Virus record (IMG/VR): IMGVR_UViG_2609460125_000016
Coordinates: 1 to 16,185 of that record
Length of the DNA stretch: 16,185 bases
Source of the DNA: a virus
Lineage: Duplodnaviria; Heunggongvirae; Uroviricota; Caudoviricetes
Direction: 5' to 3' (one strand)
The notes beneath the pieces were generated by a model. The model was not told the origin of the DNA and did no database searches. It saw nothing but the letters and a program-made list of their open reading frames with translations. The position numbers were made by a program, and so were the translations under genes. This document shows, one piece after another, positions 4,978 to 10,282 of this stretch (its first letter is position 1; the number at the start of each line of letters is the position of its first letter).

Positions 4978-5673
4978 ATGTTATATGCATTTAAGCTGGG
5001 CAGAAAACTGCGCGGCGAGGAACCTTATTGCCCTGAAAAAGGCGGGAAAGGTGGCAGTTCTGATAAAAGTGCAAAGTATGCCGCAGAAGCTCAGAAGTAT
5101 GCCGCAGACCTGCAGAATCAGCAGTGGCAGACGATCATGAAAAACCTTGCTCCGTTCACGCCACTCGCTCAGCAGTACGTATCACAATTGCAGAATCTTT
5201 CCTCTCTTCAGGGGCAAGGTCAGGCACTTAACCAGTATTACAACTCTCAGCAGTACAAAGATCTTGCTGGTCAGGCTCGCTATCAGAGTCTGGCGGCAGC
5301 GGAAGCAACAGGTGGATTGGGTTCCACTGCAACCGGTAATCAGTTAGCAACAATCGCACCAACGCTTGGTCAGCAATGGCTATCTGGTCAGATGAACAAC
5401 TACCAGAATCTGGCAAATATTGGTCTTGGCGCACTGCAAGGTCAGGCAAACGCCGGGCAGACATATGCCAACAACATGAGTCAGATTTCGCAGCAAAGTG
5501 CGGCTCTTGCCGCTGCTAATGCCAATAAACCATCAGGTCTTCAGACAGCAATTAGCGGCGGAGCTTCAGGGGCTATGACTGGCGCTGCTCTTGGCTCTAT
5601 TGTTCCAGGACTTGGCACTGGATTAGGTGCGGCAATTGGCGGCGGACTTGGCCTGCTTGGCTCGTTGTTTTAA
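4978..5673 (+). CDS. Ejection (internal virion) protein, P22 gp7-like
   Basis: 231 aa, N-terminus MLYAFKLGRKLRGEEPYCPEKGGKGGSS resembles P22 gp7 as recalled. Q/N/G-rich middle and Gly/Ala-rich hydrophobic C-terminus; size and position match. Confidence 0.75.
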   Translation: MLYAFKLGRKLRGEEPYCPEKGGKGGSSDKSAKYAAEAQKYAADLQNQQWQTIMKNLAPFTPLAQQYVSQLQNLSSLQGQGQALNQYYNSQQYKDLAGQARYQSLAAAEATGGLGSTATGNQLATIAPTLGQQWLSGQMNNYQNLANIGLGALQGQANAGQTYANNMSQISQQSAALAAANANKPSGLQTAISGGASGAMTGAALGSIVPGLGTGLGAAIGGGLGLLGSLF

Positions 5674-5682
5674 GGGGTAATC

Positions 5683-7089
5683 ATGGCTACTTGGCAAGGA
5701 ACAAACGGCGGATTGTTGGCTGGTATCGGCGGCGTCAACTCAAACGCTCCGAGCGTAAATGACATCGGCAATACGCTTCAGCTTATCAGGCAGAACAATG
5801 ATATTGAGCGTTCAGGCGCTAACAATGTTGGGCTGACGGCTTTGCAAGGTCTTTCAGGTATTGCGGGTGTTTTTCAGCAGGAAAAGCAGGCTCAGCGGCA
5901 GAAAGAATTTCAGCAGGCGTACGCTAATGCTTATGCGTCTGGTGATCGCGGTGCTTTGCGTCAGTTGGCTACTGAATATCCAGACCAGATTGAATCCGTT
6001 CGTAAAGGCATGGGATTCATTGATGAAGACCAGCGCAATTCCATCGGTACCTTAGCGGCTGGCGCTCGCCTTGCGGCATCGTCTCCAGAAGCGATGCAAT
6101 CATGGCTGCAAAACAACGCCAAGGAACTGGTGCGCGTCGGCGTTGACCCTAATAACGTTGCTCAGATGTATCAGCAGAACCCTTCAGGATTTGGTGAGTT
6201 TGTTGATCACCTTGGAATGGCCGCGCTTGGTCCGATTGATTACTTCAATGTTCAGGACAAGATGGCTGGTCGTGAAATTGACCGAGGCAGGCTGGCAGAG
6301 ACAATCCGCAGCAATCAGGCTGGCGAGGCACTTCAGGCGAGAGGGCAAAACCTTTCCTATCAGTCAGCAATGACTGGGCACAATATCGCAGCACAACGCT
6401 TGGCTCTGGATCAGCAAGAGTTCGTGTTTAAGATGCAGCAAGCGCAGGAAAAGGCTCAGCAGTTGATTAGCGAAGCACCTAAGCTGTCAGTAAACATGGA
6501 AAAAGGCATCGAGACGGCTGTAAACAATGCCACAGCATCATCAAACTCAGCCAATTCTATGAGTGCGCTTGCTCAACAGTTCAGAGCAGAAAAACCAACG
6601 ACAGGTTTGTTCGGTAACGCACAGAACATGTTCGCAAAACTTACCGGAAGCGATACAACATTGCGTGATTTGCGCATTCGCCAAAATGCCCTTGTTAACA
6701 GTCAGGTCCTTAAATTCCTACCTCCCGGCCCAGCAACGGATAAAGACGTTGAGATCGTTCGGCAGGGTGCGCCAACTGACATGGATAACCCTGAGACGGT
6801 CGCAAGATGGCTTGATGCAATGGCAAACCTTGAGCGACGAAACGCGCAGTTTAATGAGTTTAAAGCCGAGTGGATGAGCGCGAATGGCAACCCTGGACAA
6901 TCGCGTAATGGCGGTCAGATATTGGGGTTGGATGTTAAAAAAGGTGAATCATTGGGGAGTGCCGTTAAGCGGTATATGTCAATGAATACTGACGCAGCGC
7001 CAGCACAAGATTCGACACCTTCAGGAGAACCACGGAATCAGGTTGGATCATATACCTCAAAATCAGGCATTCAATTTACGGTGGAATGA
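5683..7089 (+). CDS. Ejection (internal virion) protein, P22 gp20-like
   Basis: 468 aa (P22 gp20 is of similar length, as recalled); RBS aaggggtaatcATG; lies between the gp7-like and gp16-like genes. Confidence 0.7.
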
Positions 7090-9350
7090 TGAAAGTAACT
7101 GCAAACGGTAAGACATTTACCTTTCCTGATGGTACAAGCACCGAAGATATTGGCACCGCCATTGATGAGTATTTTGCTGGTCAGGCTGTTCAGCAACAAA
7201 CAGTTAATCAGGCCAATAATGCACCAACACGGGAAGAACCCTCATTGATGCAACAAGCTGGCGATTGGCTCACTGGTGGTCAAAGTGCAGGGCAAATTGC
7301 AGAGCAGGCTGGTCGTGGTCTGGTAAACATACCATTCGACGTATTACAGGGCGGCGCAAGCCTGATTAATGCAATCAGTCAGGGGCTTGGTGGGCCAAAA
7401 GTATTGGATGATGTCTATCGTCCAGTCGACCGACCGACAGATCCTTACGCGCAAGCTGGAGAGTCAATAGGCGGTTATCTTGTTCCTGGAGCAGGTGTAA
7501 CTGGAAACATGGTCATTGGTTCTCTCGCTGACGCGGCGAATCAACGGGGTGATTTTGCCGAAAATGCCGCTATTAATGCCGGACTTAACATTGCTACGCA
7601 TGGCCTGATAAATGGCGTTACCCATGGTGTTCGTGGTGCATCAAATATAATTAGTGGCAATAAAACATCTGCACAGAGAGCGACCACTGCGGCAACAGAA
7701 ACATCACCATTCTCCGGTACTGCGCCAACAGAAACATCACCATTCTCCGGTGATGCCGCTGCAGCAACAAATCCTGCGGTTCATGCCGCAGAGGCAAGAG
7801 CAGCACAAGGTGTACCAATGACGCCTGCGACGAGGGACCCAGAGGAGGTCGTCCGCACAGTAGCAGCACAAAAAAGGCCAAATCTCGCTTCATCGCTTGA
7901 TGAACTAGATATCAATCCTCAGGCTGAAGTTCTGGAGTCTGCTGAAAGGCTTAATGTTGATTCATTACTCCCTTCACACTTTTCCGGGAACGAGCAATAC
8001 AAGGCAGTTGAGCAAGCAATCAAGTCCCGTGCGGGTTCTGCTCTACGGGTGCAGGAAAATGAAGCAATCAGGCAACTAGCACAGGGCGCGGGGGAGATAA
8101 TTGATCGCGTTTCCGGTGCAAAAGATGCTCTTGGTATGAGCGACAAGTTTATTGATACGATCAATGGAAGAATGTCTGCGCTGATGAAACGAAGCGACCA
8201 GCTTTATCGCAATGTTGAAAAGGCGATGCCTGCAGGTGCAAAAATTGATGCGCCATCAACAAGGTCAATGCTCAAACAGGTGGCAGAAGATCTTGGCGGG
8301 ATGAAAAACCTTGACCCTATTGAAAAGAGAGTCTTTCGGGCAGTTAATCCAGGCAAGAACGGCGCATTAACTTATGCAAATCTCAATAAGCAACGACGAC
8401 TTGTTGGTGATGCACTTCATAAGAATTCTGGACCATATAAAGATGCTGATCGCGCTGCTTTATCGAGGCTTTACGGTTCGCTCGCCGATGATCAAAAGGC
8501 GGCGCTGTCAGAGACAAATGCATTACGTGATTTTGAAGTTGCTCAGAGGCTTGTTCAGATGCGAAAAAGCATGGAAGAGCAAATGATTAATCTAACTGGC
8601 AGAACGCTGAACGGTGATGTTTCTCGCAAAGCAACTACAGCACTACAGGCAATGTCGAAAGGCGATGCCAAAGGATTTCGTGAATTGATGCAAAACACGC
8701 CGTCCAGGAAGCTAAGAACCGAGCTACTGGGAACAGGTCTTCGGGATATGCTTTCGAACGGAAAACGTGGCGCTGATTTTAATCCTGCAGGGTTTGCTGA
8801 CTGGTATCAAAACATGTTAGCAAACGGGCAGATGCGCAATCTTGCCAGACATTTACCAAAAGAGACTATGTCAGGTCTGAACGATGTATATAAGGTCGCA
8901 AAGGCTATCAAAGATGCAAAATCTTACGAGATAACTACAGGAAGACTAAACGAGTTCGTCAAACGGTTTAATCGCGTCACTGCGGCAAATGAATTTGTTG
9001 CTAACCATGCCCAACGCATTGGCACTGCGGTTGGTTCAACTGTGTCAGGACCGTTCAGTGCAGTAGGTGCTGTTGCTGGGTCAGAAATTGGGGCAAAAGT
9101 CGCCAGCAAAATCAGGGCGATGGGCGGCGCTGCATCAATGGAATCTGCAGAAAAGCTAATTAGCTCACCAGAATTCCAGAAAGCAGCAAGACTGGCAGTA
9201 AGACAAGCACCAGAAAGCATCGTTGATACAACTGTAAGACGCTCTTCTGCTTGGCGATCGTTTTACAACTCACTTCCAGAATCAGATAAGAAAACCATAT
9301 CAAGGCTAGGCATCATGTACTGGATGAACAGTGATGATAACCAGAAGTAA
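7086..9350 (+). CDS. Ejection (internal virion) protein, P22 gp16-like, enlarged with an internal low-complexity region
   Basis: 754-aa ORF overlapping the gp20-like stop (ATGATG start at 7086). Last large gene before the immI position, as gene 16 is in P22. Ala/Thr/Ser/Gly-rich segments including an 11-aa tandem duplication. Confidence 0.65.
7686..7751 (+). repeat. 33-bp in-frame tandem duplication (2 units, 32/33 identical) inside the gp16-like gene
   Basis: actgcgGcaacagaaacatcaccattctccggt followed by actgcgCcaacagaaacatcaccattctccggt; encodes [11 protein letters not shown] then [11 protein letters not shown]. Confidence 0.95.
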
Positions 9351-9367
9351 CGGAAAGCCACGGATGG

Positions 9368-9628
9368 TTAGTTGCAGTCTTTTTTATATAGCTCTTTGAG
9401 AGTATCAAAGACAATTTTCTTAACCATATCGGATTGTTGGTCTGCAATACGCTCTGCATCGTCAATGTAAACAGATGCAGAGCTTTGTTTAGCCAATGAT
9501 TCTTCAATCGCTGCAATTATCTCTGAGTTCAGCGACCTGTTATTCATCTTCGCACGCTGCTTAATTTTCGCGTGGAGTTCATGCGGAAGTCTCAAGTGAA
9601 ACTGCGCCTCGTCGTATTTGCTGTACAT
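9368..9628 (-). CDS. mnt: Mnt-like ribbon-helix-helix repressor (Arc/MetJ family)
   Basis: Minus-strand ORF from ATG (rc) at 9628 with AAGGA RBS: MYSKYDEAQFHLRLPHELHAKIKQRAKMNNRSLNSEIIAAIEESLAKQ...DDAERIADQQSDMVKKIVFDTLKELYKKDCN. Aligns over its length with P22 Mnt as recalled (...NGRSMNSELLQIV...NDAERLADEQSELVKKMVFDTLKDLYKK). Same position and orientation as mnt in P22 immI. Confidence 0.75.
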   Translation of the reverse strand: MYSKYDEAQFHLRLPHELHAKIKQRAKMNNRSLNSEIIAAIEESLAKQSSASVYIDDAERIADQQSDMVKKIVFDTLKELYKKDCN

Positions 9629-9759
9629 CCTTGATGCCTCACCAATTGGGTGGAATGGCATCGTAACTTACTGGATAAATACTCAATAGTACCATTTCGG
9701 TATGCAATCACATCATGGTTGCATCATATCATTCGTCTGGAGCAATGAAATGTCAGATA
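9629..9759 (-). promoter_or_regulatory. Putative mnt promoter/operator region (intergenic, between the HNH gene and mnt)
   Basis: 131-bp non-coding gap directly upstream of mnt containing short inverted motifs (atgcaa...ttgcat flanking catcat repeats). No P22 O-mnt-like palindrome recognised. Assignment is positional only. Confidence 0.25.
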
Positions 9760-10260
9760 TCACCTACTCAACAGATGGTCAGCAACCATGTTTGCTGCCT
9801 TATAAGCTATAGCCGCTTCATCAATGGTGTTGAATCTCCCAAGGGTTATGTTTTTACCTGAGACATTTATCTGAGCTTGCCATTGATTTCTGGCTTGACA
9901 GAAAGTTACCCCCTTGATTCCAGCATTGCTATTTCGAGGTCCGACATTTAATGCATTTACGACTCTGCTGACATCCCTAAGGTTTGAGATTGCGTTATTT
10001 CTTCTGTTTCTATCAATGTGGTCAATCTCTTGTTTGGGCCATTCGCCATATACATACAGCCAGGCAAGTCTATGTGCAAAATATCTTACGCCATCAATAT
10101 TAATTGCGTTATATCCATAAGAAATTGTGCCAGCAACTTTCCCAACAGCACCTCTGGCGCTTAATTTCTTTTTCCAAGTGAAAATTCCTGTTTCTTTATT
10201 GTAATCGAGAACCTCCATAAGGCGCTCCCGAGTTACTACCTCGTGACGTCTCTTACTCAT
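9760..10260 (-). CDS. HNH homing-type endonuclease with C-terminal AP2-like DNA-binding domain
   Basis: Start ATG (rc) at 10260 with RBS ggagaaaataATG. Protein MSKRRHEVV...[32 protein letters not shown] (HNH motif) ...[45 protein letters not shown] (AP2-like). The in-frame ATG at 10302 lacks an RBS. Confidence 0.8.
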
Positions 10261-10282
10261 TATTTTCTCCGGAATGTTTATT

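Follow-up and report, generated by a model that had tools for sequence, protein, structure and literature searches.

The window, by which we mean the whole stretch of 16,185 nucleotides analyzed here, corresponds to the late region of a P22-like (Lederbergvirus) prophage. Genes for gp7 (4978-5673) and gp20 (5683-7089) are followed by a gp16-like ejection protein gene (7086-9350, plus strand), an ORF of 754 amino acids whose relatives carry PF26808 (Phage_P22_gp16), and then by an mnt homologue (9368-9628, minus strand), an HNH endonuclease gene (9760-10260, minus strand), and the tailspike gene (10283-11995, plus strand; 570 amino acids), whose product contains the P22 head-binding domain (Head_binding, 4e-62). 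The stop of the gp16-like gene at 9350 and the convergent mnt stop codon, which begins at 9368, are separated by a gap of 17 bp (9351-9367). Beyond the tailspike gene come gtrC, gtrB, and gtrA, all on the minus strand, then a fragment of an integrase and a transposase of the IS3 family. The gp16-like, mnt, HNH, and tailspike genes were all found where the earlier note on this DNA had placed them. On its left side, the variable “ant moron” region is bounded by the gp16 gene. The prophage looks defective, with a frameshift in the coat gene and an integrase cut by an IS element. Several NCBI assemblies carry the same locus, and no complete Escherichia coli genome covers at least 80% of positions 9000-10600.

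In the curated P22 record BK000583 the genes are arranged in the order 16, sieA, orf59a, mnt, arc, sar, ant, 9, in agreement with the layout from gene 16 to gene 9 that the earlier note had given. The complete immI set of mnt, arc, sar, and ant was not found in the window, which holds mnt alone. When Arc, Ant, SieA, and orf59a of P22 and the Arc-like, Ant, Rha, and KilA proteins of Kapi1, JEP4, VSe13, and Gally were used as tblastn queries (E ≤ 10), only chance-level matches were obtained in the whole window, which bears out the claim that arc, ant, and sieA are absent from it.

The full ORF of the mnt homologue (9368-9661) matches Repressor_Mnt (PF11423, 8.6e-15) and Arc (PF03869, 1.1e-14) in Pfam, and the PDB entries 1MNT (9e-20, over alignment residues 6-79) and 1QEY (4.8e-9). 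Both the N-terminal ribbon-helix-helix (Arc-like) DNA-binding domain (PF03869, 1MNT) and the C-terminal tetramerization domain (PF11423, 1QEY) are present in the protein, which is 51% identical to P22 Mnt, and the gene occupies the position of P22 mnt, with gene 16 on one side and the tailspike gene on the other, and runs opposite to the late operon. Translation likely starts at the internal ATG at 9628, giving a protein of 86 amino acids, because GAGG lies 8 nt upstream, the N terminus of P22 Mnt aligns there, and gene callers choose this start in relatives. This Shine-Dalgarno GAGG (9637-9640, minus strand) is kept in most of the 47 distinct upstream sequences found at 81 loci. The upstream in-frame ATG at 9661, which would extend the protein to 97 amino acids, is probably part of the -10 element and the leader, and the codon that follows the region of this ATG varies non-synonymously (T/I/F/L/P) among relatives. 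The gene is intact as an 86-codon ORF in 80 of 81 copies, with a mean pN/pS of 0.149 over the 81 copies and 0.085 in the DNA-binding half. It is under purifying selection and not decaying, which speaks against the pseudogene that had been raised as an alternative.

This mnt allele normally stands alone beside the tailspike gene. Among 80 IMG/VR loci that encode a Mnt at least 92% identical, the tailspike gene directly adjoins mnt, with no HNH gene, in 69; the HNH gene of the window type is found in 6 and a second HNH gene in 4, and arc, ant, and sieA occur in none. The module made up of mnt and its leader is present in 268 of 5,426 complete E. coli genomes (~5%), and the viable phages Sf101 and IME10 carry it, the former in the order gp16-mnt-tailspike without an HNH gene. 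In the Mnt class of the window, mnt and the tailspike gene are always arranged divergently, regardless of which other genes are present, and in ST160, Gally, and Proteus phage Brookers, which have other Mnt classes, mnt is also divergent from the tailspike gene and arc is lacking. A repeat of the search for relatives with an alignment of seven Mnt proteins recovered the close relatives already found and brought in no further diversity. Regions of this kind have been described before: Villafane et al. compared the variable “ant moron” across sixteen genomes and distinguished ten types, of which those in ST64T, ST104, and Para1 are mnt-only (PMC2629481), and an mnt-only region has been published for phage L (PMC8022706). 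To call the locus a remodeled immI region was hence an overstatement, as it represents a published and common variant.

A candidate Mnt operator lies at 9689-9703, ATACCGAAATGGTAC in the minus-strand reading with the core TACC-N5-GGTA, which stands in the register of the P22 mnt operator. Next to it lies a candidate mnt promoter (9660-9686, minus strand), composed of a -35 element TTGAGT (9686-9681), a 15-nt spacer, and a -10 element TACGAT (9665-9660). The dyad is centered 10 nt before the -35 element, as is the P22 mnt operator, and the junctions ATACCGAAATGGTAC-TATTGAGT in the window and GGTCCACCGTGGACC-TATTGAGA in P22 place each dyad beside the -35 of its own promoter in equal register. 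The promoter was assigned by positional homology with the annotated Pmnt of P22, where the mnt operator and then the -35 of Pmnt are laid out as GGTCCACCGTGGACC-TA-TTGAGA-17-TATCAT, and likewise with ST160 (AGACCACGGTGGTCT-TA-TTGTGG-17-TATGAT), Gally (AGACCACTGTGGTCT-TA-TTGAGG-17-TAAGAT), Brookers, and JEP4 (ATACCGAAACGGTAC-GA-TTGTTG-17-TACGAT); in the same register the window reads ATACCGAAATGGTAC-TA-TTGAGT-15-TACGAT. A consensus promoter scan that required a spacer of 16-18 nt missed this promoter, whose spacer is 15 nt in the lineage of the window. The dyad is imperfect in the window, with 4+4 symmetric bases as against 5+5 in JEP4. Two classes of leader that accompany the same Mnt DNA-binding domain keep the dyad and diverge completely just beyond it, and the dyad therefore forms the edge of a conserved regulatory block; the operator, the -35 and -10 elements, and the Shine-Dalgarno sequence are all kept across the divergent leaders. 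The motif TACC-N5-GGTA occurs a single time in the 38.7-kb genome of Sf101, and within the window the 15-mer is unique even when up to 3 mismatches are allowed. In P22 Mnt and Arc, residues of the recognition strand contact the bases, and across the phages compared here the half-sites vary together with this strand, which is HFNFR in P22, QFNLR in ST160 and Gally, and QFHLR in the window. This covariation fits the finding, cited in PMC3413123, that the specificity of Arc and Mnt is set by a short N-terminal region. Mnt would be expected to bind the dyad at 9689-9703.

The overlap of the operator with a strong ant promoter, as in P22, was not found in the window, which has no ant and only a degenerate sequence (ATGGCA-15-TAAATA) at the position of Pant. 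No plus-strand promoter was found in 9200-10500 by a scan that recovers P22 Pant at 11/12, and none directed rightward is detectable at or after the operator. Nor was a second operator found near the ant-like genes of JEP4, VSe13, and AR_0058 or anywhere in Sf101. The proposal that Mnt has lost its known target thus holds for ant and its promoter, while the candidate operator and Pmnt have been retained. Because these are kept and there is no ant promoter or gene to repress, autoregulation at a single dyad would be the simplest reading, and the suggestion of autoregulation in the earlier note seems plausible from the operator-like dyad that abuts the mnt -35 in the P22 register.

Several other candidates were considered and rejected. 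The operator 15-mer occurs 125 times in IMG/VR, 53 of these in an mnt context, and the remaining occurrences, viewed as possible ant operators, are scattered in a manner consistent with chance; one near an ant-like match (L135) falls within coding sequence of a phage with high GC content, and a repeated pair in elements of 54% GC (L098 and others) precedes small ORFs without an antirepressor domain. A hairpin-forming palindrome, ATGCAATCA-N5-TGGTTGCAT (9702-9724, plus strand), was first taken for the Mnt operator, and was rejected because it is specific to the Sf101-type tailspike leader and absent from the JEP4-type leader, which goes with the same Mnt DNA-binding domain. Of its variants, 2 perfect the palindrome, 4 form G.U pairs in the plus sense, and 2 are disruptive. 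A promoter predicted by the scan upstream of this palindrome (CTGACA-17-AATGAT) is also missing from the JEP4-type leader, and its supposed -35 is the start codon region of the tailspike gene.

Within mnt, in the antisense direction, lies a candidate terminator (9451-9490, plus strand) in which a hairpin at 9451-9483, with a 10-bp stem and a 13-nt loop, is followed by TTTGTTT. The hairpin has a dG of -18 kcal/mol and a z of -3.84, none of 200 shuffles being as stable, and the stem is fully paired, with all 10 base pairs, in 80 of 81 relatives. Three variants affect the arms: two of them, found in 13 sequences, stay paired as G.U in the plus sense only, and the third, found in a single sequence, breaks a pair. 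The structure might terminate transcription heading for the tailspike gene. In relatives with other Mnt C termini, a canonical terminator of late sense is found at the mnt stop instead, and in epsilon34 it is annotated as a terminator. It seems, therefore, that mnt modules regularly include a terminator that faces late transcription, which agrees with the published proposal that tailspike expression is tuned by this region (PMC2629481).

The HNH gene (9760-10260) encodes a protein of 166 amino acids that matches HNH_3 (2.1e-16) in Pfam and phrog_99 (7.4e-63), together with an AP2-like match (3.6e-6) whose 27.6 bits are below the Pfam cut-off of 33.3; a PDB search with the protein gave no match. 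Its TGA stop codon (9760-9762) is inside a relic of the resident tailspike start (9740-9764, plus strand), which consists of GGAG, an ATG at 9750, and codons 2-5 (MSDIT). From 9300 to 9764, the window and Sf101 share 97% identity, the relic being identical to the Sf101 tailspike start, and the homology ends at 9764: of the start of the Sf101 tailspike gene, ATGTCAGATATCACC, the same 15 bases and the GGAG survive in the window, and foreign DNA follows. Kapi1 is 99% identical to the window over 9736-10350 and has a relic tailspike start of its own, ATGACAGACATTACC. As the two relics show, the cassette interrupts the tailspike gene behind codon 5. It spans ~590 bp (9765-10353) and contains the HNH gene with its candidate promoter and Shine-Dalgarno sequence, a start codon that now serves the tailspike gene, and recoded codons of that gene. 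By reading of the sequence, the Shine-Dalgarno GGAG of the HNH gene (10270-10267, minus strand) is within the cassette, and a candidate promoter (10294-10322, minus strand), with a -35 element TTGGTT (10322-10317), a 17-nt spacer, and a -10 element TATAAT (10299-10294), falls inside the recoded codons; this promoter is under the threshold of the scan, and its -35 matches at only 3 of 6 positions.

The tailspike protein now begins with MPEQLY..., from a start supplied by the cassette, and codons 6-24 (10298-10354) form a cassette-linked recoded tract of 19 codons, which is 54% identical to Sf101 at the DNA level, with 12 synonymous and 4 non-synonymous differences among the 19. Codons 25-99, in comparison, are 98% identical to Sf101, and the occupied allele differs in this way from the empty one around the insertion site. 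A plausible effect of the recoding is that the occupied site escapes cleavage. A 15-bp relic of the resident type is found in two leader backgrounds, which simple homologous repair does not explain.

The left junction of the cassette and the recoded tract are found in the same 20 IMG/VR contigs, in strict linkage, and the HNH protein in these contigs is 99-100% identical. They follow five kinds of region, namely the P22-type sieA-mnt-arc-ant, the Kapi1-type mnt-arc-ant, the JEP4-type arc-rha-kilA-mnt, regions with other ant genes, and the Sf101-type mnt alone. Only 15 of the 5,426 complete E. coli genomes carry the cassette, all copies being at least 99% identical, and a scan of genome contigs for the cassette junction gave no match. 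At the same junction, other prophages carry a second HNH gene of the same PHROG that is 35% identical. Thus, near-identical copies are present or absent at one fixed site in otherwise homologous genomes of diverse background, the marks expected of a free-standing homing endonuclease, and the cassette would be a candidate for cleavage and homing of this kind. It is independent of arc/ant because copies at least 99% identical follow intact mnt-arc-ant regions, in Kapi1 and in IMG/VR prophages, as well as the other contexts. The HNH gene does not stand in the place of arc and ant, as had been thought, but lies among the codons of the tailspike gene.

The locus is an ordinary mosaic of known modules, and we consider it probable, from these sequence comparisons, that two of them, a stand-alone mnt with its operator and a selfish HNH cassette, came to lie side by side independently. 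The first module would produce, from its own weak promoter and against the late operon, a predicted tetrameric ribbon-helix-helix repressor, which most likely binds the single 15-bp dyad abutting the -35 and regulates its own synthesis, and the window has no working counterpart of the strong ant promoter overlapped by the operator in P22. The same module places its late-sense hairpin and T-run in the path of transcription to the tailspike gene. The second module, inserted after tailspike codon 5, carries its own candidate promoter and ribosome-binding site and brings a replacement tailspike start together with the 19 heavily recoded codons that plausibly shield the occupied site.

The selection on mnt is clear, yet it would be hard to explain for a repressor that regulates only itself, which suggests an additional target or role. 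One possibility is that the stand-alone Mnt gates transcription of the tailspike gene, either by silencing it in the prophage or by tuning late read-through together with the embedded hairpin, or that it acts in trans on incoming phages with the same operator. In addition to the purifying selection, the invariable divergence of this Mnt class from the tailspike gene, the position of the candidate operator ~50 bp upstream of the original tailspike start, and the constant company of late-sense terminators speak for such a target, and in P22 the ant region is reported to control the tailspike level, with the possible participation of Mnt and Arc (PMC2629481). We nevertheless regard it as unlikely, given that no rightward promoter was detected at or after the operator, that no second operator was found near the ant-like genes mentioned above or in Sf101, and that the other IMG/VR matches to the operator look like chance. 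The bolder proposal that Mnt is kept for control of tailspike transcription, and that control of the tailspike rather than of the antirepressor is the conserved core function of Mnt, is rather doubtful; if it were true, Mnt would silence the tailspike gene in the prophage or set its dosage through late read-through.

Another possibility is that mnt is left over from a deleted immI region and is decaying without present function, an idea that the authors working on phage L considered for their mnt-like gene (PMC8022706) and with which the degenerate ant promoter position and the defective appearance of the prophage would agree. This is quite improbable in view of the intact ORF in nearly all copies and its low pN/pS, the retention of operator, promoter, and Shine-Dalgarno sequence across divergent leaders, and the occurrence of the module in so many E. 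coli genomes and in viable phages. Least credible of all, and very unlikely, is the proposal that Mnt, having lost ant, now regulates the upstream HNH gene as a new regulatory pair: the two genes are adjacent and co-oriented in the window and in a few E. coli prophages (VE-T9, EC06, AR_0058), but no operator-like site exists in the 22-bp gap at 10261-10282 or at the candidate HNH promoter (10294-10322), the only such site with a matching context in the window is downstream of the HNH stop, 69 of the 80 relatives of this Mnt lack any HNH gene, the cassette is mostly found without this Mnt and in identical form beside other Mnt classes or directly after ant, and transcription of the HNH gene would, if anything, read into mnt and not the reverse.

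On the preferred reading of two independent modules, what appeared to be a new regulatory pairing is the result of two mobile modules landing side by side, and the present analysis is mainly a correction. It does provide a concrete candidate operator and promoter for a common class of stand-alone Mnt, and it adds the finding of purifying selection to a literature that had left the choice between a remnant and some other role open. The cassette, which is annotated in relatives and not mentioned in the literature searched, would be a candidate site-specific homing element at the first codons of the tailspike gene, the boundary at which receptor-binding modules are exchanged in P22-like phages, and double-strand breaks at its site could promote tailspike exchange.

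Among known systems, the immI region of P22 is the closest to the mnt module. P22 Mnt shares with the protein of the window the ribbon-helix-helix domain, the C-terminal tetramerization domain, 51% identity, and the same gene position and orientation, and in both cases a dyad lies directly beside the -35 of Pmnt, in the same register. The window differs in lacking arc, sar, ant, and sieA and in having a degenerate sequence in place of the strong Pant; its recognition strand is Q-F-H-L-R, as against H-F-N-F-R in P22, and its half-site is (A/G)TACC(G/A)(A/T) (ATACCGA, GTACCAT), as against GGTCCAC. The mnt-only phages, that is, ST64T, ST104, Para1, and phage L (PMC2629481, PMC8022706) as well as Sf101, IME10, ST160, Gally, and Brookers, resemble the window in that mnt is the sole regulator between gene 16 and the tailspike gene, while they have no HNH cassette and some of them have one extra small gene.

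For the cassette, the closest counterpart is that of Kapi1 (Kapi1_066), which is 99% identical and has the same left junction, a relic start, and a recoded tailspike N terminus, but follows a complete mnt-arc-ant region; the paper on Kapi1 makes no mention of an HNH gene upstream of the tailspike gene. In a wider sense, the cassette resembles the free-standing HNH homing endonucleases of phages (HNH_3 with an AP2-type domain; phrog_99), which are likewise small ORFs with their own expression signals, present or absent at a fixed site in a conserved gene, in near-identical copies and with a divergent occupied site. Those endonuclease genes, however, lie between genes or in an intron, whereas the cassette of the window separates the first five tailspike codons from the rest of the gene and furnishes a substitute start.

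The state of the prophage suggests that it is defective, because a frameshift in the coat gene is accompanied by an integrase fragment that abuts a transposase gene. The coat protein gene (183-1477) reads as two ORFs, 183-647 in one frame and 557-1477 in another. Compared with the intact coat genes of APC_JM3.2 and IME10, both phages, the segment 150-1500 lacks one base; the split likely arose at an A-run near 506-511, either as a true frameshift or as a sequencing error. At the other end, only a C-terminal fragment of the integrase is left (14966-15340, minus strand), abutting an IS3-family transposase gene on the same strand (15367-16185). Between these ends, an O-antigen glucosylation cluster (12062-14616) converges with the tailspike gene and encodes GtrA (120 aa), GtrB (305 aa, with a Glycos_transf_2 match) and GtrC (421 aa, with no Pfam match).

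The homologues of Mnt carry the label "partition protein ATPase" in RefSeq and PHROGs (Sf101, NC_027398.1 14284-14577; P22, NC_002371.2; phrog_795), which is a propagated mis-annotation of a ribbon-helix-helix repressor of 83-97 aa. A tblastn search with P22 Mnt also gave a weak in-frame match within gp20 (6241-6435; 38% over 65 aa, E 6e-5), which probably reflects compositional or coiled-coil similarity. In E. coli AR_0058 (L006, 665-3165), JEP4 (L010) and VSe13 (L011), the tailspike-adjacent class of Mnt found in the window is convergent with an operon of the antirepressor type, made up of arc-like, Rha or Ant, and KilA genes; no copy of the operator was found near the antirepressor genes of these three; the first mnt of AR_0058 is truncated.

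A 16-mer that matches the JEP4-type operator exactly, CATACCGAAACGGTAC, occurs away from mnt in two copies 515 bp apart at locus L098 (7579-8108), and the same pair is present in L103, L126, L137, L165 and L174, all unrelated elements of 54% GC. Each copy in the L098-type elements precedes a small ORF by about 20 nt, and one of these ORFs encodes an Nmad4 domain. The pair is probably a coincidence because no Mnt homologue lies near it in these elements.

A second HNH_3 endonuclease, found in E. coli 2018-05-5CC (L007, 2761-3270) and four IMG/VR loci, is 35% identical to that of the window, with both in phrog_99, and the two share their insertion junction (ATCACC|TAC). Its insertion brings an ordinary tailspike start, whereas the window cassette brings a recoded one. 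The relic of the original start, its GGAG still intact, heads a leftover 20-codon ORF (9750-9812) antisense to the 3′ end of the HNH gene.

The Sf101-type tailspike leader contains a palindrome with 9-bp arms (9702-9724), 26 nt upstream of the original tailspike ATG and missing in the JEP4/Kapi1-type leader; among relatives, its changes comprise two that perfect it, four that are G·U-compatible in the plus sense and two that are disruptive. A plus-sense hairpin with a 10-bp stem, followed by TTTGTTT, lies antisense within the mnt coding sequence (9451-9490; −18 kcal/mol, z −3.8), where two of the three arm variants still pair as G·U, in the plus sense only, and the third disrupts one pair. In the other Mnt classes, a canonical late-sense terminator located at the mnt stop takes the place of this embedded hairpin.
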